A DNA stretch of 24,281 nucleotides, from IMG/VR virus record IMGVR_UViG_2675903394_000002, positions 1 to 24,281 of that record; one strand, given 5' to 3'. The DNA comes from a virus. Lineage: Duplodnaviria; Heunggongvirae; Uroviricota; Caudoviricetes. Below are positions 3,918-15,291 of this stretch, one piece after another (position 1 is the first letter of the stretch; each line of letters starts with the position of its first letter). The position numbers and the translations under genes are program-made. The notes under the pieces were generated by a model that was not told the origin of the DNA, did not search any database, and saw only the letters and a program-made list of their open reading frames with translations.

Positions 3918-4180
3918 TGTTCATTCCACGGACAAAAACAGAGAAAGGAAACGACAGAGGCCAAAAAGCTCGCTTTCAGCACCTGTCGTTTCCTTTCTTT
4001 TCAGGGGGTATTTTAAATAAAAACATTAAGTTACGACGAAGAAGAACGGAAACGCCTTAAACCGGAAAATTTTCATAAATAGCGAAAACTCGCGAGGTCG
4101 CCGCCCCGTAGCCTGCCGGATCGCTGGAAAGGACCCAGCTACTAGCGAATGCCAGTAGCCAAGGTGGGCTGCGGGCTTAA
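3918..4180 (-). other. cos site (cosB, cosN, cosQ); the cosN 12-nt cohesive-end sequence is at 4095-4106
   Basis: The reverse complement of 3900-4106 reads GGGCGGCGACCTCGCGAGTTTTCGCTATTTATGAAAATTTTCCGGTTTAAGGCG..., the lambda left end up to the Nu1 start. The sequence beyond 4106 matches the lambda right end (cosQ side). Confidence 0.85.
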
Positions 4181-4181
4181 T

Positions 4182-4427
4182 TTAAAGCGGTGTGATTTGC
4201 AACCATTCAGACGCACTAATCTCAAAGCGACGTCCGTTAGACAACTCGATAATCACGGGTAATTCACCTAGCTCCAGCCAGGCGTTTTTTTCCGTTGGAA
4301 AACTAACAGTAGAGATCTGGTAATCCAATACGCTTTCAGCCAGTCGGCAACTTTTAAACACATCACCAAGGGCGGACGCGAAGAATACATTTAGCTCATA
4401 TTCAATCTGCTCTTTAGCAGCTGTCAT
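4182..4427 (-). CDS. Hypothetical protein (81 aa) between cos and the lysis genes
   Basis: ORF in the ORF track; occupies the lambda bor/right-end accessory position. Weak ribosome-binding site; no family recognised. Confidence 0.4.
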   Translation of the reverse strand: MTAAKEQIEYELNVFFASALGDVFKSCRLAESVLDYQISTVSFPTEKNAWLELGELPVIIELSNGRRFEISASEWLQITPL

Positions 4428-5679: not shown

Positions 5680-6147
5680 TTATTTTAAGCACTGCATCCT
5701 GATGTATTCCTGCAACGTCCTTAATGCGGCTTGATCACTGATGATTCCATCTCTGATACCGAGAACGTTTCGTCCAGCAACTGGAGAGAGTTCGACGGTG
5801 GCATCATTGCCCATGCCGGAGGCGCTGGAGGTTTTGGCTGAGGATGGCACAGGACATTTGCCTTTGACGAGCACCCGACCACCATTATTAAGCTTGCGCC
5901 GAAGAGCATCATTTTCAGCTTTCGCATCAGCTAACTCCTTCGTGTATTTAGCATCGAGTGCAGCAACATCACGCTGACGCACCTGCATGTCAGTAATTGT
6001 CGCGTTCGCCAGTTTCAGTTCTCTGGCATTTTTGTCGCGCTGCTCTTTGTAGGAGATGGCGTTATCACGGTAATGATTAACAGCCAACGACAGGCAGACG
6101 ATGATGCAGATAACCAGTGTGGAGATAATCGTGGTAACTCTGCTCAT
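5680..6147 (-). CDS. Rz: Spanin inner-membrane subunit (i-spanin) Rz
   Basis: [55 protein letters not shown]... closely resembles lambda Rz: N-terminal TM helix plus coiled-coil. The start overlaps the endolysin stop (ATGA). Confidence 0.9.
5721..5927 (-). CDS. Rz1: Spanin outer-membrane lipoprotein subunit (o-spanin) Rz1, embedded in Rz in the +1 frame
   Basis: [21 protein letters not shown]...[16 protein letters not shown]: lipobox (VVGC) followed by a proline-rich segment, lying entirely inside Rz, as for lambda Rz1. Confidence 0.8.
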
Positions 6148-6641
6148 TGTTGCCCCCATAAACAGACTTCACGCTCAATCTCACGGCGAGTCATCAGCCC
6201 TTTCCATTGCTTACCGCCAGCGTATGTCCAGCGCCGTAGCTGATCACATGCGCCTTTGATATCGCCCTGGTTTATTTTGCGAAGAAGCGTCGATGTTCTG
6301 AAATTGCCAGCGCCCACGTTGTAAACGAACGAGTAAAGAGCGCCGCGCGTTGTTTCCGGTATATCGACTTTGATGTACGGGTTAATTTGTCTGGCGACCG
6401 TGGCAAGGTCTTTATTCAGGAGGGCTTTGCATTCTGCTTCGGTATACGTTTTACCTGGTATGATGTCTTTTCCGGTGTGTCCGTGACATACAGTCCATAC
6501 ACCAACAATATCTTTGTATGGTATGTAGCTGACACCTTCCAGACCATCGTTACCACTTGGACCAGTGATGAGCACAGACGCTATGGCAACAGCCCCACCA
6601 CCAATAGCAGCAGCAATAGCCTTGCGTAATGATGGCGACAT
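6144..6641 (-). CDS. R: SAR endolysin (lysozyme, phage 21 R-type, 165 aa)
   Basis: N-terminal Gly/Ala-rich signal-anchor-release helix ([18 protein letters not shown]) followed by a T4-lysozyme-like domain; the sequence closely resembles phage 21 R as I recall it. Confidence 0.9.
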
Positions 6642-6856
6642 TATTCACCTCTCGCAGCCTTACGCTTATCTTCTTTAATCTTGAAATAAAGGTTTGTCAG
6701 ATACGTCAGCAAGCCAAATACCAGACTACCCAGCACACCTATTGCCGCCCACTGTGAGGGCGTGACTTTATCGAGCAACTGTAAAAACCAGTACCCGGCA
6801 CTACCTGCTGAGGTGCCATAGGCGACACCCGTTGTTAACTTATCCATGGATTTCAT
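6641..6856 (-). CDS. S: Pinholin, phage 21 S-type (71 aa) with dual-start motif MKSM
   Basis: [71 protein letters not shown]: two TM helices, resembles S21. Ribosome-binding site GAGGTGGAG upstream of the start at 6856. The ORF track extends to 6910. Confidence 0.85.
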
Positions 6857-7123
6857 AACTCCACCTCGCAGATGCGGGTGCAAATTGAGAGAATAAAAAA
6901 TCCCCGACAATTCCAGATGTCAGCGGCCTTAAATATAAAAACAGGCAAATGCCGAGGCCCGCTAATCGTTGCCACTATGAGCGCTGCGACGCCATTTCAT
7001 CCAGACAAGCTATCAGATACGGAAGCCGTGCTGCCGCTTTTACGGCATTGTATTCACTATACTTATCTATTCTGATATCGTTAAATCAACAGAAATAACC
7101 AATATCAGAAGGAACGCATTAAT

Positions 7124-7672
7124 ATGGCGAACAATCTTTTTTATACACTTGACAGGCAGCGCACACTGAAGTCAGGCATGAAAATTGAATTAGCAGAACC
7201 GTACTGCCCAATCGTTCCACTTCAGGCTCATACGAGCTCATTGTTTTCCGACGGTGTATCCCGGCATGCAAATAATCTTTTTTTCAACTACCACATAAAC
7301 CTCGTCAGCTCAGACGAACGATTTGGAGCAATAATAGAAATACTACTGGAAGAACGAAGGAAATCACACTTCCCTGAAAAACCATCACGCTTCCAATCAA
7401 TTTTTGCATGTGAGTCTGTAAAAGAAACCGCCTGGTTCAGAGGCTTTTCAAAATCCCCACTTGACACCCCAATATTTCAAGTCAGCTCATCGTCGAACTA
7501 TCATAGAGGTGATATGAATTTGTTAAATCTGAACTGCTCCCCAGTAGAAGTATCTCAGAGGCTGGATCTTTACTGGAAGGGTGAAACAACACAGATTTAC
7601 GAAGGGTATCAACCATTCTGGGAAGTGCTCATTCCATTGCCAGTTATTATTGGTGAAAGAATTATCGAATAA
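7124..7672 (+). CDS. Hypothetical soluble protein (182 aa), first gene of the inverted insertion between S and Q
   Basis: ORF on the strand opposite to the late operon in an AT-rich insert. No TM segments and no family recognised. Confidence 0.6.
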   Translation: MANNLFYTLDRQRTLKSGMKIELAEPYCPIVPLQAHTSSLFSDGVSRHANNLFFNYHINLVSSDERFGAIIEILLEERRKSHFPEKPSRFQSIFACESVKETAWFRGFSKSPLDTPIFQVSSSSNYHRGDMNLLNLNCSPVEVSQRLDLYWKGETTQIYEGYQPFWEVLIPLPVIIGERIIE

Positions 7673-7862
7673 TGGCTCTGACACCAGAATCATTTCCATA
7701 GCCGAACTGACGCTGACAGATTTTTAATTCGCTTATGGCTTTCTCCATTGCTAATAGCGCGTCTTCAGTACGGTAGCAATCAACCTCAAGAACAAACGTT
7801 TTGAGATTGCTACTATCATTCCCGGCGAAAAGCGCATAGCTGGGTTGACCAGTCTGATTCAT
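7662..7862 (-). CDS. Possible small antisense ORF (66 aa) whose start abuts a G9 tract
   Basis: ORF-track entry; the start ATG at 7862 is immediately preceded on the minus strand by GAGG plus a run of G. It converges on and overlaps the 3' end of the 7124-7672 gene by 11 nt. Could be spurious. Confidence 0.25.
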   Translation of the reverse strand: MNQTGQPSYALFAGNDSSNLKTFVLEVDCYRTEDALLAMEKAISELKICQRQFGYGNDSGVRAIIR

Positions 7863-8014
7863 CCCCCCCCCTCAAACGACGAAACCCGCTCGACGGCGGG
7901 TTTAAGCCACGTGACAAAGTAACCACTCTTAACACGATACAATAGTTTTTGCGTACGCGTTAGCATTTTTGTTAAAGTATAAAAATGTAATTAAACCAGT
8001 ATGTCATCACTACA

Positions 8015-8899
8015 ATGAAATGCATCCGAAAACATCCAGCAATAGCTTATACAGTAATTATTTTAGTTTTTGCCTTAATATACAATTTCACTTGGAGCGT
8101 CAATCCAGATTCTTTCATTAAAAACAACGTTCTCAACTCTACACCTGTATATGATGCCGTTAATTTAGCATATGCGAACAATGAGGTAAAAAAAGAAGCT
8201 CCTGTCAGTGTTTCGAGGGAAGTATTTGCAGAGCAAATTTTAACACTTACAAATCAATTCAATAAGATAATAATTGAAAACTTAGAACTTGAAAAAACAT
8301 TATCTCAGCAGCAAGAAAAATTAAAACAAATTAGTGAAAGACAATCAATAAAGTGGGGCGAAAACACCAAAAAATACATAGCAGACAGTTTGAAAGATTT
8401 ACACAAAACGCTTATCACTAAAAATAGTGAACGTACTGCCATAGCATCTTTAAAAAACAAAACAAATGAAAGTCAGATTAACACTATGCTGGCCGACAAA
8501 GATGAAGAAATAGCCAAAATAAACCTTGAAATAGCGTATAAAGAGTATGATGCTAATGTCTATATCTTATCTCATGTCGGCGACTTTAACGATCCAATAA
8601 TCGTTAATGAGCTTGACGCAATCAATAAAGAAATTGAGAAAACAAGAACAAAAATAATAAACAACAAAAAGAAAATAATGGAGATAAGGAATAAATCTCA
8701 ATCTATGCTGGAGAAACTCAAAAAAGATGACCTTAACTTTTTGGATTTCTTATTTTATAGCATAGGAATATCTACAACGACCACCTTTGGTGATTTGTTA
8801 GCAAATTCAAGACTTATCAGACTGATAGTTTGCGTGCAACTTTTACTATCAATTATAGTTTTAGCTAACGTAACTCAAAGATTTTTATCAAAAAAATAA
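8015..8899 (+). CDS. Hypothetical membrane protein (294 aa): N-terminal TM helix, Lys/Glu/Asn-rich coiled-coil domain, C-terminal potassium-channel-like pore helix/filter/TM module
   Basis: Hydrophobic segment AIAYTVIILVFALIYNFTW at about aa 9-27; heptad-like K/E/N/I-rich middle; C-terminal NFLDFLFYSIGISTTTTFGDLL (nt 8726-8794) followed by TM helix LIRLIVCVQLLLSIIVLANV. Very AT-rich codon usage. Confidence 0.7.
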   Translation: MKCIRKHPAIAYTVIILVFALIYNFTWSVNPDSFIKNNVLNSTPVYDAVNLAYANNEVKKEAPVSVSREVFAEQILTLTNQFNKIIIENLELEKTLSQQQEKLKQISERQSIKWGENTKKYIADSLKDLHKTLITKNSERTAIASLKNKTNESQINTMLADKDEEIAKINLEIAYKEYDANVYILSHVGDFNDPIIVNELDAINKEIEKTRTKIINNKKKIMEIRNKSQSMLEKLKKDDLNFLDFLFYSIGISTTTTFGDLLANSRLIRLIVCVQLLLSIIVLANVTQRFLSKK

Positions 8900-8906
8900 A
8901 AAACAA

Positions 8907-8926
8907 AGCCCTCAAAAATGAGGGCT
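8907..8926 (-). terminator. Rho-independent terminator hairpin (agccctca-aaaa-tgagggct), strongest on the minus strand just downstream of Q; also positioned to terminate the plus-strand 8015-8899 gene
   Basis: Perfect 8-bp stem with 4-nt loop. On the minus strand it is followed by UUGUUUUUUAUUUUUUU; on the plus strand by AAUUUAAA. Confidence 0.6.
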
Positions 8927-8936
8927 AATTTAAACC

Positions 8937-9281
8937 TTAAGATAAGAACGATAAAATCCCGTCCAAAAATCCTAGTGCAGTTTGCAATTCCTTTCTAATC
9001 GTGCCATCTGAACACCTTCTCTTCTTGGCAATAGTGCGTAATGAGATACCAATAACAAAGTGGGCAATTAGTAGCTCATATTCTTCTGGCTTATATTTAC
9101 GCAACCTCGCCACACATCCATCAATCATAAGACCTTCATCATCATCACACTGCATCCGGGACTTTTTGCCATGAGGTAAAAGCCCCTTGAAGCCTGCTGC
9201 TATCGGCTGCCAATCCACACTACTGTTATCTGCTGCAGCCCATGCTCCCCAGCGGTCCAAAACTTCATACATGTCACGCAT
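8937..9281 (-). CDS. Q: Late-gene antitermination protein Q (DLP12 QuuD-like, about 114 aa)
   Basis: MRDMYEVLDRWGAWAAADNSSVDWQPIAAGFKGLLPHGKKSRMQCDDDEG... resembles DLP12 QuuD as I recall it. Ribosome-binding site GGAGAAAG upstream of the ATG at 9281. The ORF track extends to 9335. Confidence 0.8.
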   Translation of the reverse strand: MRDMYEVLDRWGAWAAADNSSVDWQPIAAGFKGLLPHGKKSRMQCDDDEGLMIDGCVARLRKYKPEEYELLIAHFVIGISLRTIAKKRRCSDGTIRKELQTALGFLDGILSFLS

Positions 9282-9365
9282 CAACTTTCTCCACAAAATC
9301 AGGCCAGCACGCCAATTACAAGCAAAAATCAACAAAACAGTATTAGTTGATTGTTATCTCTGACT

Positions 9366-9506
9366 TCATACTCCTGCTCCTGTCAGGGTTTTGGCGTAAT
9401 TCTTCAGTATTCGGTAATCGGTCAAAACAGAACCGGGGAAACGATATAAGCGCAGACGCCCCCAGCGGTGGCGAAGAAGTTCTGCTATATTAAACTCAAA
9501 CATCAT
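9366..9506 (-). CDS. ylcG: Small nin-region protein YlcG-like (46 aa)
   Basis: Manual translation gives [46 protein letters not shown]. The start overlaps the rusA stop. Below the ORF-track size cutoff. Confidence 0.65.
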
Positions 9507-9865
9507 TCATTCCCCATTTCGGTGATGGTCAGTTCCAGCCTCCCACCTTTGGTAACAGGCATCTTCACAACGCGGTAATCAACGACCTGAGCATCATCCA
9601 GCCAGAAACCTGCTTTAGTGAGTGCGTCAAAAGCGGCTTTTTGCAGATTATCCAGGTCACGGCGACGGCGATCCGGCATGTGGCACTCAATGCGGATTTT
9701 CACAGGCATAGCCAGGCCGATATCCAGCATTGCGCTTTTAATGATTCGGGCGACGTTATCGCGGTATGCCTGCCCTTCTGCACTGACGTGCGTGCGCCCG
9801 CGATTATGGCGGTAATAGCGATTATTGCTCGGAGGCCAGGGTAATGTGATACTGTAGGTATTCAC
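9503..9865 (-). CDS. rusA: Holliday junction resolvase RusA (120 aa)
   Basis: [43 protein letters not shown]... is near-identical to DLP12 RusA as I recall it. Confidence 0.9.
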
Positions 9866-10152
9866 GCCTTAATAACCCCCTCTTTCAGCCAGATAACCTG
9901 TGTTCTCGCCATACCTTCCAGCGCGCATTCTTTTGCATATGCAGCATCGACAAAATGTGTGCGGCGGTCGATTTCGTCGTGGCAGGCAGAACATGCAATG
10001 GTGGCAATCAGGTCTGGCGGTTTGATACCGGTACCGCACAATCCAGCCAGCCGGATATGTGCCAGTACAGACGTTTCAGAATTGCCATTACATACGCCAG
10101 GGATTCTTACCTGGCATTCCCGACCACGCGCTGCTTTTCTCAAATCAGCCAT
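9862..10152 (-). CDS. ybcO: YbcO-like nin-region protein (96 aa, Cys-rich putative nuclease)
   Basis: [42 protein letters not shown]... matches DLP12 YbcO. The ORF track extends to 10191. Confidence 0.85.
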
Positions 10153-10315
10153 GATTCCTCCTTGCTGCCAGTCGCAACCATTTTTTATCAACCAGGCTAG
10201 CGGTATATCCGAGCAGTGTTGGTATTTCGGATGGCTTCAGCTCAGGCTTACGCTTACGACGATTTGATACTCTGTAGATGTGTCCGTTCATGACACGAAT
10301 AAGCGGTGTAGCCAT
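10145..10315 (-). CDS. ninE: NinE (56 aa)
   Basis: Codon-by-codon manual translation gives [56 protein letters not shown], ending at a TGA at 10147-10145. The start overlaps the ybcN stop (TAATG). Confidence 0.75.
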   Translation of the reverse strand: MATPLIRVMNGHIYRVSNRRKRKPELKPSEIPTLLGYTASLVDKKWLRLAARRNHG

Positions 10316-10770
10316 TACGCCTCCTGCTTGTCGCGGAGCAGCTGGAACTCGCAGCTCTGCGGAATAGTCAGGTGGCAGCCAATATTCACCGCCCAGGCTT
10401 CAACCTTACACAGGAAGACATACATCTCTCCGGTATCAAGATCGGAGGTATGGCGTAACGACTGGATAGTGGTGATATCACCGGTTACGACATCAACCAG
10501 GTCTTTGGTTTCATAACCGAGATATGTGTGTTTGAGAGCATCTTTTACCCAAGCTGGAGTGGCGAACGTTTTACCCCTGCTGATGAGGTATTCACTGATT
10601 TCGCTGTACCACATGTGGCTGAGTGCATTCTGGGAAAGACTGCGTTTCTCACGCCACGGTTTAAGCACCATGCGAAAGCATTTGCCCTCCTCCAGATAAG
10701 GCTGGATCTGCCGACCGATAGCGGTGAAGTTGCCGCGATGTAATTTGATGCCGTCTTGTGAGAGGTTCAC
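10315..10770 (-). CDS. ybcN: YbcN-like nin-region protein (151 aa)
   Basis: The 151-aa ORF has the size and position of DLP12 ybcN. Ribosome-binding site GGAGGTG six nt upstream of the ATG. Confidence 0.8.
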
Positions 10771-10891
10771 GCTTCACCTCCGCAGAGGTCAAACGCTAGA
10801 TGCAAAGAATTGCAGGTGCATTTCTGCATCTGTGAAGGGAGAAGAGAGTTTGGATTGTATGTGCGCATAAACGTCCCCGTTTAGCGCAGAA

Positions 10892-10920
10892 GTCACCGGA
10901 GTTGTTCAGGCTCCGGTGAC
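10892..10920 (-). terminator. Perfect 10-bp inverted repeat (gtcaccggag - 9 nt - ctccggtgac) between ybcM and ybcN; stem-loop, possible terminator or attenuator
   Basis: Seen directly. Neither strand has a strong U tract after it, so its function is uncertain. Confidence 0.35.
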
Positions 10921-10984
10921 ATAATTATGCCGTGTTGATTTCCCAAAATCAAAATCGATAGAATTGCTCCTTCTTAAAACACTT

Positions 10985-11782
10985 TTACTCTCTGGAAGCT
11001 TTTCTTATCTCTCTTGGTGTTATATTAAAACGATTATGAAATCTTTCTGTAAAACGAGAAGGACACTTATAACCATTTTCTCTGGCAATCTCGCTTATAG
11101 GTTTTACCGTCGTTTGTATAGCAGACAACGCATTATTTAACCTCACATCGTCCAGTATACTTTGGAAACTTACCCCCTCGCTTGCTAGACGGCGATGTAA
11201 TGTAGAAACAGAAATGTAGAGATATCGAGCAACCTTGTTTGCTGTCCATTTTGTGCCGGGTTCGGATAGCAGCAGGTTATAACAACGACTTATCAATGAT
11301 TGTTTACTATATGATAAAAGTAAATGATTAACATGATTCACTCCTAACGAAAGTAGAACGCCCATTGCTAAGTGCTCCTGAATTTTAGTTGAGAAGCCTC
11401 GGGAAACAGATGTTTTTAGTTGCTCCCAACAATATATTAACTCAGGATTCTGAGGTAAAAAGAAACTTGTTTTGTTACGTATTTGATCAGTTACCGTATA
11501 AAGTTTTTGGAAACTCTCAATTAAATCAATGGGTAAGTAAAGCATTTCTGCAAGATAAAGCCCTGCTTCAGGATAATTCTCAATATAAAATTCATAACCA
11601 CAAGGAAATAATATTATTTGATTATTATCAACAGTTAAAGTATGCGTCTCCCAATTGATAACTTTCTTTCCCTGACGGATACGACACAAAGCTGGCATAA
11701 GAGGCTTAACCCTATGAATCTCATGATGTTTATGCATCCGTATTTCTTCGATCTTTAAGTTAGTCTTACCTCTTGCCAGCAT
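10985..11782 (-). CDS. ybcM: AraC-family transcriptional regulator (265 aa)
   Basis: C-terminal AraC-type HTH region (…[41 protein letters not shown]…); size and position match DLP12 ybcM. Confidence 0.85.
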
Positions 11783-11791
11783 ACTCTCACC

Positions 11792-12343
11792 CTACTTTAT
11801 CTCATAAACTGGTGTTATCTCAGCGGTTGCGATTTTATTAGCATTAAGCATATAACCAACTAACGCTCCGCTGGAGTTAGAATCTACAGGAATCTTTTCA
11901 GTTTTTAGAGCCCATACTTTAAACTGGTAATGATGTGGTTTATCTCCTTTAGGAGGACATGCGCCACCAAACCCAGCATAGCCAAAATCATTTCGGCCTT
12001 GAACAGCACCAGTCGGCAGTTTTGTTCCATCACGTCTCCCTGCATCAACGGGCAAATATGTTATTGTTGCTGGAATATTAACAACAGTCCAATGCCACCA
12101 ACCACTGCCTGTAGGTGCATCTGGATCATATACAGTTACGGCAAAGCTTTTGGTACCTTCAGGAACACCAGACCAGGTTAATGAGGGCGATGTATTACCA
12201 CCTTCACACCCAAATCCAGAAAAGACATGAGACGTTGTAAGTTGCTCTCCTGTTTTTATTTCATTACTAGTGACCTGAAATGCTGCAGCCTGCGCAGAAA
12301 ATGTTATGAATGCCAATACAGTTGAAACGATAAGTGTTTTCAT
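11792..12343 (-). CDS. ybcL: Secreted PEBP/YbcL-family protein (183 aa) with signal peptide
   Basis: N-terminal signal peptide MKTLIVSTVLAFITFSAQAAA; resembles E. coli YbcL. Confidence 0.85.
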   Translation of the reverse strand: MKTLIVSTVLAFITFSAQAAAFQVTSNEIKTGEQLTTSHVFSGFGCEGGNTSPSLTWSGVPEGTKSFAVTVYDPDAPTGSGWWHWTVVNIPATITYLPVDAGRRDGTKLPTGAVQGRNDFGYAGFGGACPPKGDKPHHYQFKVWALKTEKIPVDSNSSGALVGYMLNANKIATAEITPVYEIK

Positions 12344-12559
12344 AAAAACCTCTTTGTTATGATCTATCGTTATTTTATTTGATATTCCTTTATCTCATTA
12401 TGCATAAAGGCGCAATGTTTATGCAAAAGCAATCACAATTGTACCCCCAACCCAATTATTTGCCACAATATACACAAAGCACATTGATACTATCTAAAAA
12501 CCCTGCTTTATTATTAGTAATACCTACGAAAGTCGGTGTTATTTTTTAACCTACCATTC

Positions 12560-12609
12560 AAAATACGTGACATACACCATTTTGCTCATAATAATTTGTC
12601 ACGTATTTT
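12560..12609. repeat. Perfect 13-bp inverted repeat (aaaatacgtgaca ... tgtcacgtatttt) with a 24-bp AT-rich spacer in the ybcK-ybcL intergenic region
   Basis: Arms at 12560-12572 and 12597-12609 are exact reverse complements. Confidence 0.6.
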
Positions 12610-12807
12610 CAGTATTTGAATCTGCGACCAAGAGTTCTCACCTAACAAATGATTAAGATTGTATAGCTCATTTACTACCCCAATACAGCCGTACAAAACT
12701 CGCTTGTGGGAGCAAACAAAGTAATTACCCATTAAGTTTCGTCAAAGATAATTAATTCTGTCTTGCACTTTATCACCATAGCATAACTTAAAATCCGAGA
12801 TCATTAT

Positions 12808-14334
12808 TTAGAAATAAATCTCACCATCAACCATATATTTGAGAGCACTTATCGCCTGCTGGGCGGATATTACTTTCATTAAAGGATAGTGTTTAAAAAC
12901 AATGCCATTCATAAAATAGATACCACAGGTTTTATTATCCGTATTAATTATGATTTTTTCGAATGTTTTATAGGCAAGTGTACGGCATAACTCTCGTCCA
13001 TTTTTACTGGTTAAGTCAATAGCATAAAAATCACTGAATGAATTTACACCTTTACTCTTCAAAGTTTTCAATGATACCGAAGCCCTTCGTAATTCCTTAT
13101 CTAATAGTCTTATTTTCTCTGCTATAGCGGTAACTTCAGGCGCGACAGACAATGCAACGATTAAATTATTAATTTTCATCTGAAGCTCAATAATTTTTAA
13201 CTCTAAAGTTTCATTAGCATCTTTCTTGTTTTCAACTGGTTGAATTTTGCTACAATTAAAAAGCAATTCATTAATGATATTATAATCAACCAAATCTCTT
13301 TTTATTGATGGCCTGTCACATCGATGTAATCTTCTCATCGGACAAACATAATAGCCATGCAAACTTCCAGATACCGCATGAACAATCATGGTATTACCAC
13401 AAGCCTCACACTTCATAACTGTTCGAAGTAGATTTATTAGCATAGGATTCTTGCTACTATTGCTAATACCAAAAGGTGCCAACCGAATTTCCTGTACAGC
13501 GTAAAACAAATCATCTGATATAACTCTGGGATAATAGCCAGCGATTTCACTTATCCCTTTCCCTCTTGCACGATATGAAGGTACGCATATACCTATCAGA
13601 GCTTTATTCGCTAATAATTTTTCAATTACAGAAGGTCCCCATGCACTTTCTTTTCCTGAGAAATTCTTTACAGCATGATCATTTAAATACTTGGCTATTG
13701 CATTCAATGAGCGCCTTTCCATCCTGAGTTTAAAAATTAGCTCAATAGTTTTCACCCTGTCGGGGTCTGGAACAAAAGCCGTTCTTTTGTCATCTAAGGA
13801 GAGCCATCTCGGACAAGACGCCGTCATAATCGTACCTGATTCCATTGCATCCTGCCGTTTTTTCTTCCATGATAATTTAACCCGACTTGACTTTATCTCG
13901 CTTTCTTCATTTGCCCTTTGTGCTATAAGTATGGCTTTTATTAATGAATATGGCTCATTCAAAGAGTCAATATTATAGACTGTATTGTCGCAAAGAGTTA
14001 TAACATCAATACCGTGATTCAAAATCAATTTCAGACGTTCAATCGCTTCACCGACTTTTTCTCTTGAAAGTCTGTCCAGACTTTCAACTAACAATGTAGT
14101 TCCTGGCAATATATAACCATGCTCTATAGCATCTAAAAATTCCGAAAAAGCTCCTGATTGTGCATGCTTTCCTTTGAATGCACTTAATCCTAAATCTTCA
14201 TATGTTATGGTATCAAGATAATAATCACTATTTACCTTTAACCATTCAGCAATAAGTCTTCTCTGTCGGTTTAATGAGTCACCAGACATCTGACCTGGTG
14301 ATGAAAATCGCATATATGCTATGGCTTTTTTCAT
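12808..14334 (-). CDS. ybcK: Large serine recombinase (508 aa)
   Basis: N-terminal resolvase-type catalytic motif AYMRFSSPGQ and a Cys-rich region (CPRW…C…CEACG…CPMRRLHRC) typical of large serine recombinases; size matches DLP12 YbcK. Confidence 0.85.
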   Translation of the reverse strand: MKKAIAYMRFSSPGQMSGDSLNRQRRLIAEWLKVNSDYYLDTITYEDLGLSAFKGKHAQSGAFSEFLDAIEHGYILPGTTLLVESLDRLSREKVGEAIERLKLILNHGIDVITLCDNTVYNIDSLNEPYSLIKAILIAQRANEESEIKSSRVKLSWKKKRQDAMESGTIMTASCPRWLSLDDKRTAFVPDPDRVKTIELIFKLRMERRSLNAIAKYLNDHAVKNFSGKESAWGPSVIEKLLANKALIGICVPSYRARGKGISEIAGYYPRVISDDLFYAVQEIRLAPFGISNSSKNPMLINLLRTVMKCEACGNTMIVHAVSGSLHGYYVCPMRRLHRCDRPSIKRDLVDYNIINELLFNCSKIQPVENKKDANETLELKIIELQMKINNLIVALSVAPEVTAIAEKIRLLDKELRRASVSLKTLKSKGVNSFSDFYAIDLTSKNGRELCRTLAYKTFEKIIINTDNKTCGIYFMNGIVFKHYPLMKVISAQQAISALKYMVDGEIYF

Positions 14335-14588
14335 GGTGACACCTGCTAACGTATGCTTTTATAAACCTTAGTGGTGGGATATAATTTTTGTTTAATTTTT
14401 ATTTAAAAAGACAATTAAGGTCACATTATCTTGAATATACAACAATAATCGTATTGCAATTTTCTTACGCCATAATCTTGAAAGCACAAAAGAATACATA
14501 AAAAATAAAGACATTAACAAAAAGCATAAAACGAGGCTCATATAAATATAAGAGCCTCCATATTTTAGTCGTTTAGAAACAAATTATT

Positions 14589-14921
14589 TTAATGTGGTGT
14601 GCTTCGTGACAATAAATTAATAACCAACACACCGGCACAAATCAACATCATGCCTATAATGGCTGGCAGGTCCAGCCGTTGGCCGAAAAATCCCCATGAC
14701 AGTAAACTAATCAGGACAATACCGACTCCTGACCAGATAGCATAAGCAATCCCTGTAGGAATATAAGCCAGCGTCTGAGCTAATAACCAGAATGATGCAC
14801 AATAACAAATAATTGTACCAACAGATGGCCATAACCGTGTAAAACCTTCTGAAAACTTCATTAAGGTTGTACCAATGACCTCTGCAAGTATTGCACCACC
14901 AAGATAAATATAAGGGTTCAT
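14589..14921 (-). CDS. emrE: Small multidrug resistance (SMR) efflux transporter EmrE (110 aa)
   Basis: MNPYIYLGGAILAEVIGTTLMKFSEGFTRLWPSVGTIICYCASFWLLAQTLAYIPTGIAYAIWSGVGIVLISLLSWGFFGQRLD... is near-identical to E. coli EmrE with four TM helices. The ORF track extends to 14975. Confidence 0.9.
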   Translation of the reverse strand: MNPYIYLGGAILAEVIGTTLMKFSEGFTRLWPSVGTIICYCASFWLLAQTLAYIPTGIAYAIWSGVGIVLISLLSWGFFGQRLDLPAIIGMMLICAGVLVINLLSRSTPH

Positions 14922-14988
14922 AGCATATTCTTTCCTGTTCAAACTGGAGAGAATTGTACTACAGTTTGAACTCAACTCACCTGTTTCA

Positions 14989-15291
14989 TCATTGTGTTCC
15001 CATTGATGTTCTTTTATATACCCTCAATACCCGTTTCATCGCGGCACTCTGGCGACACTCCTTAAAAATCAGATTCGTGCTCACCTTTCCTTCCCGTTCT
15101 TCTCTGGTAGCGAACCGGTAATACACCGTTCGCCAGACCTTACCATCAACGACCAGGATTCCTGCCCGCGCCATTTTAGCCGCAGCCTGATTTATGCTGG
15201 TTACGGTTGCGCCTGTTACCGCGGCAACGTCCTGTGCACAGAAGCTCTTATGCGTCCCCAGGTAATGAATAATTGCCTCTTTGCCCGTCAT
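14989..15291 (-). CDS. ren: Ren protein (100 aa)
   Basis: MTGKEAIIHYLGTHKSFCAQDVAAVTGATVTSINQAAAKMARAGILVVDGKVWRTVYYRFATREEREGK... matches lambda Ren. Confidence 0.85.
   Translation of the reverse strand: MTGKEAIIHYLGTHKSFCAQDVAAVTGATVTSINQAAAKMARAGILVVDGKVWRTVYYRFATREEREGKVSTNLIFKECRQSAAMKRVLRVYKRTSMGTQ

Follow-up and report, generated by a model that had tools for sequence, protein, structure and literature searches.

A structure for the uncharacterized DUF2441 family has been available since 2005. The founder of the family is BC2332 of Bacillus cereus (PDB 2AUA), a chromosomal Gram-positive protein for which neither a phage cassette nor a small partner is known. Pfam places DUF2441 in the clan of the ADP-ribosyltransferases (ARTs) (PMC7955679), SCOP lists 'BC2332-like' as d.166.1.6 (PMC3000352), and in a ProFunc template search the surface of 2AUA was matched to the catalytic site of diphtheria toxin (PMC3024214). 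The catalytic triad of ARTs comes from strands 1, 2, and 5 and takes the form H-Y-E, R-S-E, or H-H-h (PMC7955679). In the literature searched, DUF2441 is mentioned in three papers, none of which studies it. Here, we describe a DUF2441 gene in IMG/VR virus record IMGVR_UViG_2675903394_000002, positions 1 to 24,281, a stretch of 24,281 nucleotides (nt) called the window below. The window is a lambdoid, DLP12-like Escherichia coli prophage on the minus strand. The consistent neighbor of its DUF2441 gene is a convergent open reading frame (ORF) for a protein of 66 amino acids, not the nearby channel-like gene to which an original prediction, made from the sequence, had tied it.

The DUF2441 protein and its candidate active site

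The gene in question and its translation signal are as follows.

7124..7672, plus strand: gene for the DUF2441 / ADP-ribosyltransferase-fold protein (182 amino acids, soluble, ATG start)
7109..7113, plus strand: AAGGA, ribosome-binding site of this gene, read from the sequence, 10 nt ahead of the ATG at 7124

This is a real gene for a cytoplasmic single-domain DUF2441 protein. Its product has 21 homologue clusters at 49–93% identity (Salmonella, Yersinia, Cedecea, Sodalis, Arsenophonus, and metagenomes), and an identical protein is encoded on four viral contigs. A family profile search among 1.84 billion proteins returned 1,210 representatives at E ≤ 1e-3, each standing for one cluster at 50% identity and most of them 165–200 residues long. 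Together, the homologue clusters, these representatives, and the four identical viral copies lift 7124..7672 far above a chance ORF. The original prediction had described a soluble protein of 182 amino acids on the plus strand, on the same strand as a membrane protein gene and about 340 base pairs (bp) upstream of it, and all of this holds. The gene ends 342 bp before the channel-like gene (8015..8899), and its product has no hydrophobic segment, with a maximum Kyte–Doolittle mean over 19 residues of 1.06 compared with 2.41 for the channel protein. The AlphaFold2 model, built from 22 sequences, is a compact globular alpha/beta domain with a mean predicted local distance difference test (pLDDT) score of 92.3 and a predicted template modeling (pTM) score of 0.86.

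The statement that the protein belongs to an unknown family and carries no assignable motif has to be replaced. Pfam DUF2441 (PF10386) matches residues 62–152 at 26.7 bits, above the gathering cutoff of 25 (E 6.2e-6), and is precomputed on all 21 of the close homologue clusters. The protein also matches PHROG 5663, a phage family of unknown function, at 1.8e-58, and plasmid-borne relatives carry the RefSeq name 'DUF2441 domain-containing protein'. NCBIfam held no match for this protein or for the product of the small ORF, and a fold search of the viral structures in BFVD returned phage homologues only, none of them named. The remote-homology and structure-prediction searches that had been suggested as a check thus lead to DUF2441 and an ADP-ribosyltransferase-type fold. 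The family profile matches 2AUA at E 1.4e-6; the 182-residue protein shares the fold of this founder structure and shows the split beta-sheet ART fold (Pfam ART clan; SCOP d.166.1).

Conservation among 165 family representatives is concentrated in a few charged and aromatic positions. E76, R79, and R89 are found in 100% of them and E167 in 98%, and S88, Y150, W151, D10, R11, H48, D130, and M131 are conserved at 86–98%. In the order of secondary structure elements of the model, R89 stands three residues ahead of the first core strand (92–96), and E167 stands at the front of the late strand 166–171 (strand 5) in a F-W-E motif. These positions match those of the Arg and the catalytic Glu of R-S-E-type transferases as defined in PMC7955679. 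In strand 117–122, no conserved Ser or Tyr was found in the 165-representative alignment. On the basis of the model and this conservation, the protein is likely an active NAD+-using enzyme (NAD+, nicotinamide adenine dinucleotide). The active site would be formed by the invariant R89 together with E167, helped by E76 and R79, and the enzyme would use NAD+ to ADP-ribosylate a target or would cleave NAD+ on it.

A two-gene cassette independent of the channel-like gene

The comparative material consists of 67 collected loci that encode a relative of the DUF2441 protein, numbered with the prefix L. The units of the window that recur among them are given below.

6935..7902, about 970 bp, delimited by blastn: mobile two-gene cassette comprising the upstream control region, the DUF2441 gene, the small convergent ORF, and a terminator hairpin
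7662..7862, minus strand: convergent ORF of 66 amino acids (PHROG 10826, 2.4e-40), the conserved neighbor of the DUF2441 gene
7662..7672, both strands: 11 nt shared by the two convergent genes

Most loci, 56 of 67, have a small opposite-strand ORF that adjoins or overlaps DUF2441 at its 3′ end, and two more have it displaced; when the DUF2441 proteins are collapsed at 90% identity, it is present in 16 of 20 non-redundant groups. In one of the two displaced cases, from Pantoea stewartii (L015, 5753–8310), an insertion judged to be of IS66 type by its three transposase-like ORFs lies between the two genes. By sequence, four clusters can be told apart among the small ORFs; hhalign links three of them (95% probability, E 2e-8 and 4e-8) and the fourth more weakly (E 5e-4). 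Both of two homologues looked up from the side of the small ORF are convergent to a DUF2441 gene. The equivalent ORF is annotated by PGAP in an Enterobacter plasmid prophage read as Mu-like (L085), where it overlaps DUF2441 by 80 nt. In Klebsiella phage KP12 (L070, about 3980–4300, minus strand), an ORF of about 105 codons overlaps the 3′ end of DUF2441 and is not annotated in the deposited record. Across the loci the stop-to-stop distance is −107 to −77, −11 or −10, or +4 to +20 nt, a range that leaves no room for a terminator between the two genes.

The pairwise identities of the DUF2441 and small proteins co-vary (Spearman 0.83, 105 pairs), which could be produced by co-inheritance by itself. 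One alternative builds on this point: DUF2441 would be a lysogenic-conversion protein or a non-catalytic ART-fold protein acting on host physiology, and the small ORF a hitch-hiking first late gene. Overlapping or abutting 3′ ends hinder recombinational separation, so co-inheritance could by itself account for the mirror-tree signal as well as the linkage. The family is also represented outside phages, as in a Cylindrospermum locus (L020) and on Rhodococcus plasmids, and the homologues in Gram-positive phages have unrelated neighbors. Against this explanation, synteny and convergent geometry hold down to 27% protein identity and across mosaic backbones of lambdoid and Mu-like appearance, and the pattern of conserved residues resembles an active site. 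We consider mere linkage unlikely.

By blastn comparison, the DUF2441 gene is the core of a discrete cassette of about 970 bp that moves among temperate phages. One locus (L001) shares window positions 6935–7902 at 91.5% together with a 67-nt piece at 6850–6916, and another (L025) shares a single block, 6850–7902, at 87.8%. Both have a Q of a different type (DUF1133) and a different holin from those of the window. In 5,426 complete E. coli genomes no match to the cassette was found, even at low stringency in distant mode.

The prophage backbone around the cassette is conventional, and the cassette sits in a gap between two of its genes.

8937..9335, minus strand: Q antiterminator
6641..6910, minus strand: phage-21-type holin

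Lysozyme and a Rz-like gene are also encoded. Positions 9400–12400 are 99.9% identical to DLP12-like E. coli prophages, including that of E. coli ST2747. The wider backbone, 9400–15000, holds ybcM, ybcL, ybcN, ybcO, and rusA, as the matching E. coli sequence names them, and ybcK- and emrE-like genes assigned by Pfam domain. Along the minus strand the order in the gap is Q, a two-way terminator (8907–8926), the antisense channel-like gene, a conserved stretch at 7861–7975, the 66-codon ORF (7862..7662), the antisense DUF2441 gene, and the holin. The DUF2441 cassette therefore stands between the gene of the late antiterminator Q and that of the holin, and its orientation is antisense to the late operon. 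Neither cassette of the window is found in this gap in E. coli ST2747, which has the porin gene nmpC/ompC there, likewise antisense. HicA/HicB toxin–antitoxin pairs were observed in the same Q-to-holin hotspot, in Serratia fonticola (L072, 3305–3939) adjoining the DUF2441 cassette and in Citrobacter (L082, 2613–3251) adjoining a channel gene.

The original prediction had placed the DUF2441 gene in the same AT-rich insert as the channel-like gene and proposed that its product is either a sensor or regulator of the membrane protein or an independent cargo gene. The latter is what the comparison supports: the gene travels in its own block through phages with different Q and holin types. The shared insert is contradicted by base composition (GC content 0.436 in the DUF2441 block, 6935–7902, and 0.306 in the channel block, 7975–8958) and by the occurrence of each block without the other; the conserved opposite-strand ORF at 7662..7862 and a promoter/terminator-like unit at 7874–7975 also lie between the blocks. 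Co-occurrence with the 8015–8899 gene was followed from both sides, and linkage was not seen. From the DUF2441 side, the channel gene is present in 2 of the 67 loci (L022 and L024), both of which are the same prophage as the window. Two further loci (L021 and L023), in which the DUF2441 protein is 100% identical, share window positions 5900–7974 and 8959 onward, with unrelated DNA in place of 7975–8958. From the channel side, the protein belongs to a far larger family, of 108 clusters, annotated as 'ion channel / potassium channel family protein', with no PADLOC match above noise. A 98%-identical E. coli channel gene (L076 and L077) adjoins Q and then a DNA methyltransferase gene, an 81%-identical Citrobacter gene adjoins Q and then HicAB, and a 56%-identical relative outside phages stands beside nSTAND3, ArdC-like, and HD genes, in all three cases without DUF2441. 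The channel-like gene forms a cassette by itself, placed antisense immediately 3′ of Q in prophages of E. coli and Citrobacter, and the DUF2441 gene is independent of it. The homology block of L076 covers window positions 7882–9323 and that of L001 stops at 7902, so the two cassettes meet within the terminator hairpin. The channel-like protein itself has one N-terminal and one C-terminal hydrophobic segment, an Ion_trans_2 match, and a TTTTFGD motif.

A RexA/RexB-like two-gene system, with the soluble protein as sensor or regulator of the channel-like membrane protein, is consequently very improbable. In its favor, the two genes are on the same strand, 342 bp apart, both are antisense cargo in the Q–holin gap, and the channel protein matches Ion_trans_2. 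Set against these points are the co-occurrence of 2 in 67, the identical DUF2441 copies that lack the channel, the channel genes that lack DUF2441 in E. coli, Citrobacter, and non-phage islands, the difference in GC content, and the opposite-strand ORF with its promoter/terminator unit that separates the two genes. Each gene occurs elsewhere alone, and by its own refutation test the sensor/regulator model of the original prediction fails.

Control elements and a proposed late switch

Three elements upstream of the two convergent genes bear on how the genes may be expressed.

7073..7081, plus strand: TGATATCGT, extended −10-like motif of the DUF2441 gene, putative promoter
7874..7903, minus strand: GC-rich hairpin (7882–7903) with T-rich tail (7874–7884), read as a late terminator (tR′-like), at the cassette junction
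7904..7975, minus strand: late-promoter-like and leader region, also present in lambdoid prophages of E. coli, putative pR′-type unit

Within the first of these, TGATAT (7073–7078) is unchanged in all 13 of the divergent loci compared and keeps a fixed spacing of about −46 to −50 relative to the start codon. It is kept even in subfamilies whose proteins are 27% identical to the query and whose flanks are unrelated. In sequence, the motif looks like an extended −10 promoter, and RNAalifold gave no consensus RNA structure for this region. An imperfect dyad symmetry, TTCTGATATCG ... CAATATCAGAA, surrounds TGATAT in the window (7070–7110, plus strand) and recurs in L003, L034, and L043 with arm sequences that differ among loci. 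On the RNAalifold result the dyad is not taken for an RNA element; it may be an operator.

The constitutive-looking promoter, independent of the phage regulatory cascade, is also a point in favor of a counter-defense or host-takeover ART that would be made at DNA entry, modify a host defense or core protein, and be turned off late, with the small ORF as a regulator or an unrelated gene. Homologues on plasmids and in a phage that looks lytic by its replication-type neighbors (L061) point in the same direction. As general background, when a temperate phage carries an antisense cargo gene that has a promoter of its own, the gene is usually expressed in lysogeny, which speaks against this alternative. 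Further, the match to the anti-CRISPR protein AcrIF11 covers 72 residues at 7% identity, and the locus has no helix-turn-helix Aca-like regulator. Such a role seems improbable.

On the minus strand, the hairpin tail is followed by GAGG (7870–7873) and then by the ATG of the small ORF at 7862. A GC-rich hairpin with a U-rich tail precedes the small ORF in 8 of 12 folded loci, 10–15 nt before the Shine–Dalgarno sequence and ATG, and the stem sequences differ between the folded loci. The same arrangement is found in L062, whose small ORF (c35-type) is from the fourth, weakly linked cluster. Between the terminator tail and the ATG of the small ORF, the window has eight consecutive G at 7863–7870, within GAGGGGGGGGG. 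These could base-pair with the C-rich left arm of the terminator in the minimum-energy fold, and they are specific to this prophage. The 114-bp stretch 7861–7975, which includes the hairpin, has counterparts at about 87–89% identity in 190 complete E. coli genomes, where the DNA is unannotated, and in E. coli H1827/12 its equivalent stands between antisense cargo genes and the holin. We infer that 7904–7975 and the hairpin form a late promoter, leader, and terminator unit of pR′/tR′ type. Rfam gave no family match anywhere in the window, nor in 6800–8100 at E ≤ 1.

These elements suggest a possible role for the cassette, which we favor tentatively: a prophage-carried defense or exclusion enzyme with built-in self-immunity that is silenced or neutralized by late transcription and the small protein. 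The DUF2441 enzyme would have a constitutive promoter of its own, of the extended −10 type, and hence be produced both in lysogens and at an early stage of infection. The small ORF, directly behind the late terminator, would be made only upon read-through by Q-modified RNA polymerase, and Q-dependent late transcription would run antisense across the DUF2441 gene. Read-through and antisense transcription together would mean that the lytic cycle silences the enzyme gene and yields the small partner, which is proposed to be an inhibitor or self-immunity factor for the enzyme. The more specific version, an ADP-ribosyltransferase switch that is active in the lysogen (e.g., in superinfection exclusion) and shut twice, by Q-dependent antisense transcription and by an inhibitory first late protein, is rather doubtful as a whole.

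The position behind a terminator also bears on a classical toxin–antitoxin system of the addiction or abortive-infection kind, in which a constitutively toxic ADP-ribosyltransferase or NADase would be held by a continuously needed antitoxin. The pair is tightly linked and co-diverging, and HicAB pairs occupy the same hotspot. Nevertheless, in the lambdoid loci poor expression of the small ORF is expected in the lysogen because of the terminator, the genes are convergent with no co-transcribed operon, and intact DUF2441 occurs without the small ORF in 4 of the 20 groups. The locus thus lacks the type II architecture of a co-directional operon whose toxin is never alone, and this explanation is quite unlikely.

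For the late-switch proposal, recurrence is relevant: the antisense Q–holin position of the DUF2441 cassette is found in many lambdoid backbones. In a prophage read as Mu-like (L014), the small ORF is at the end of the lytic operon and DUF2441 is convergent to it. In the type represented by KP12 and an Enterobacter plasmid phage, also read as Mu-like, it is DUF2441 that has the same direction as the holin, and the small ORF runs antisense to the holin. The KP12-type orientation agrees with a cassette placed antisense inside one or another transcription unit of a phage.

Several observations count against the proposed switch and its enzyme–partner pairing. The reversed orientation of the KP12 type weakens models tied specifically to Q. 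A consensus promoter scan flagged no promoter at 7904–7975, and the pR′/tR′-type reading is drawn only from position and conservation. The small ORF is missing from 4 of the 20 non-redundant groups. In the Cedecea-type loci (L003–L006 and L027), DUF2441 is intact with all conserved residues kept, and what remains of the small ORF is its last 17 or so codons, fused to unrelated sequence beside a Bro-N gene (L003, about 6546–6716); an intact enzyme gene beside such a remnant indicates that the partner is not strictly required. The AlphaFold2 model of the small protein, beta-beta-alpha-beta, is of moderate confidence (pLDDT 71), a structure search with it gave no informative neighbor, and no macrodomain, Xre, or known antitoxin fold was found for it. 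Among the defense models of PADLOC-DB v2, there was no match for the 182-residue protein or any of 22 family members, and 19 small-ORF sequences gave one stray weak hit only.

Relation to known systems

Relatives of DUF2441 are found in Klebsiella phage KP12, Gordonia phages (Yeezy gene 32, JuJu, and Guacamole), Streptococcus prophages, and Rhodococcus plasmids. In Streptococcus phage Javan642 (L071, 3450–4164), the DUF2441 homologue is antisense in the early operon, and a convergent 59-codon ORF overlaps it by 26 nt in the enterobacterial geometry; no homology of this ORF to the enterobacterial small ORF was detectable. A lead concerning defense in Gordonia phage CarolAnn was rejected, as it concerns the unrelated gp43/gp44 (RexAB-like) and is silent on DUF2441 homologues. 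An RNA-seq table lists a DUF2441 gene of S. Typhimurium 14028, which may belong to another subfamily and is not counted here as a sign of expression.

DUF2441 is now seen as a mobile cargo gene of temperate Enterobacterales phages that has kept active-site-like residues. The conserved small partner at a phage late switch offers a cheap experimental route to function for the roughly 1,200 family representatives. If the proposed switch is true, an ADP-ribosyltransferase module with convergent, antitermination-dependent control would join the defense and counter-defense systems of prophages. The earlier reading is also corrected in that the channel-like gene is a separate cassette, to be analyzed by itself.

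The founder of the family, BC2332, is 21% identical to the 182-residue protein and is longer, with a solved chain of 224 residues. Mobile elements that pair an ART-fold enzyme with a small cognate gene are an already known kind of system. In DarT–DarG, ParT–ParS, RES–Xre, and Tre/Tri, the two genes run in one direction as an operon and the toxin always comes with its antidote, whereas DUF2441 and the small ORF are convergent with a 3′ overlap, and the partner lies behind a terminator and is missing in 4 of 20 groups. For such a mobile pair, a convergent layout coupled to late transcription is, we infer, undescribed. AcrIF11 (6kyf), an anti-CRISPR ADP-ribosyltransferase of phages and plasmids, and T4 Alt/Mod are the models for a counter-defense or takeover transferase; AcrIF11 has no sequence-level relationship to the DUF2441 protein, and unlike its context, the DUF2441 locus lacks an aca-type regulator and is antisense in the late operon.

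BstA of Salmonella phage BTP1 is a prophage defense factor with cognate self-immunity (PMC8585504). The likeness of BstA–aba to the DUF2441 cassette is one of concept only, namely that a resident phage must neutralize its own defense factor in the lytic cycle; there is no sequence or fold relationship, and the defense role of the cassette is a proposal. The self-immunity element of BstA is reportedly a DNA site, not a protein. Closest in position is the nmpC/ompC porin gene of DLP12, which occupies the same hotspot in the same antisense orientation as a different cargo, whereas the window holds two independent cassettes joined at the late terminator.
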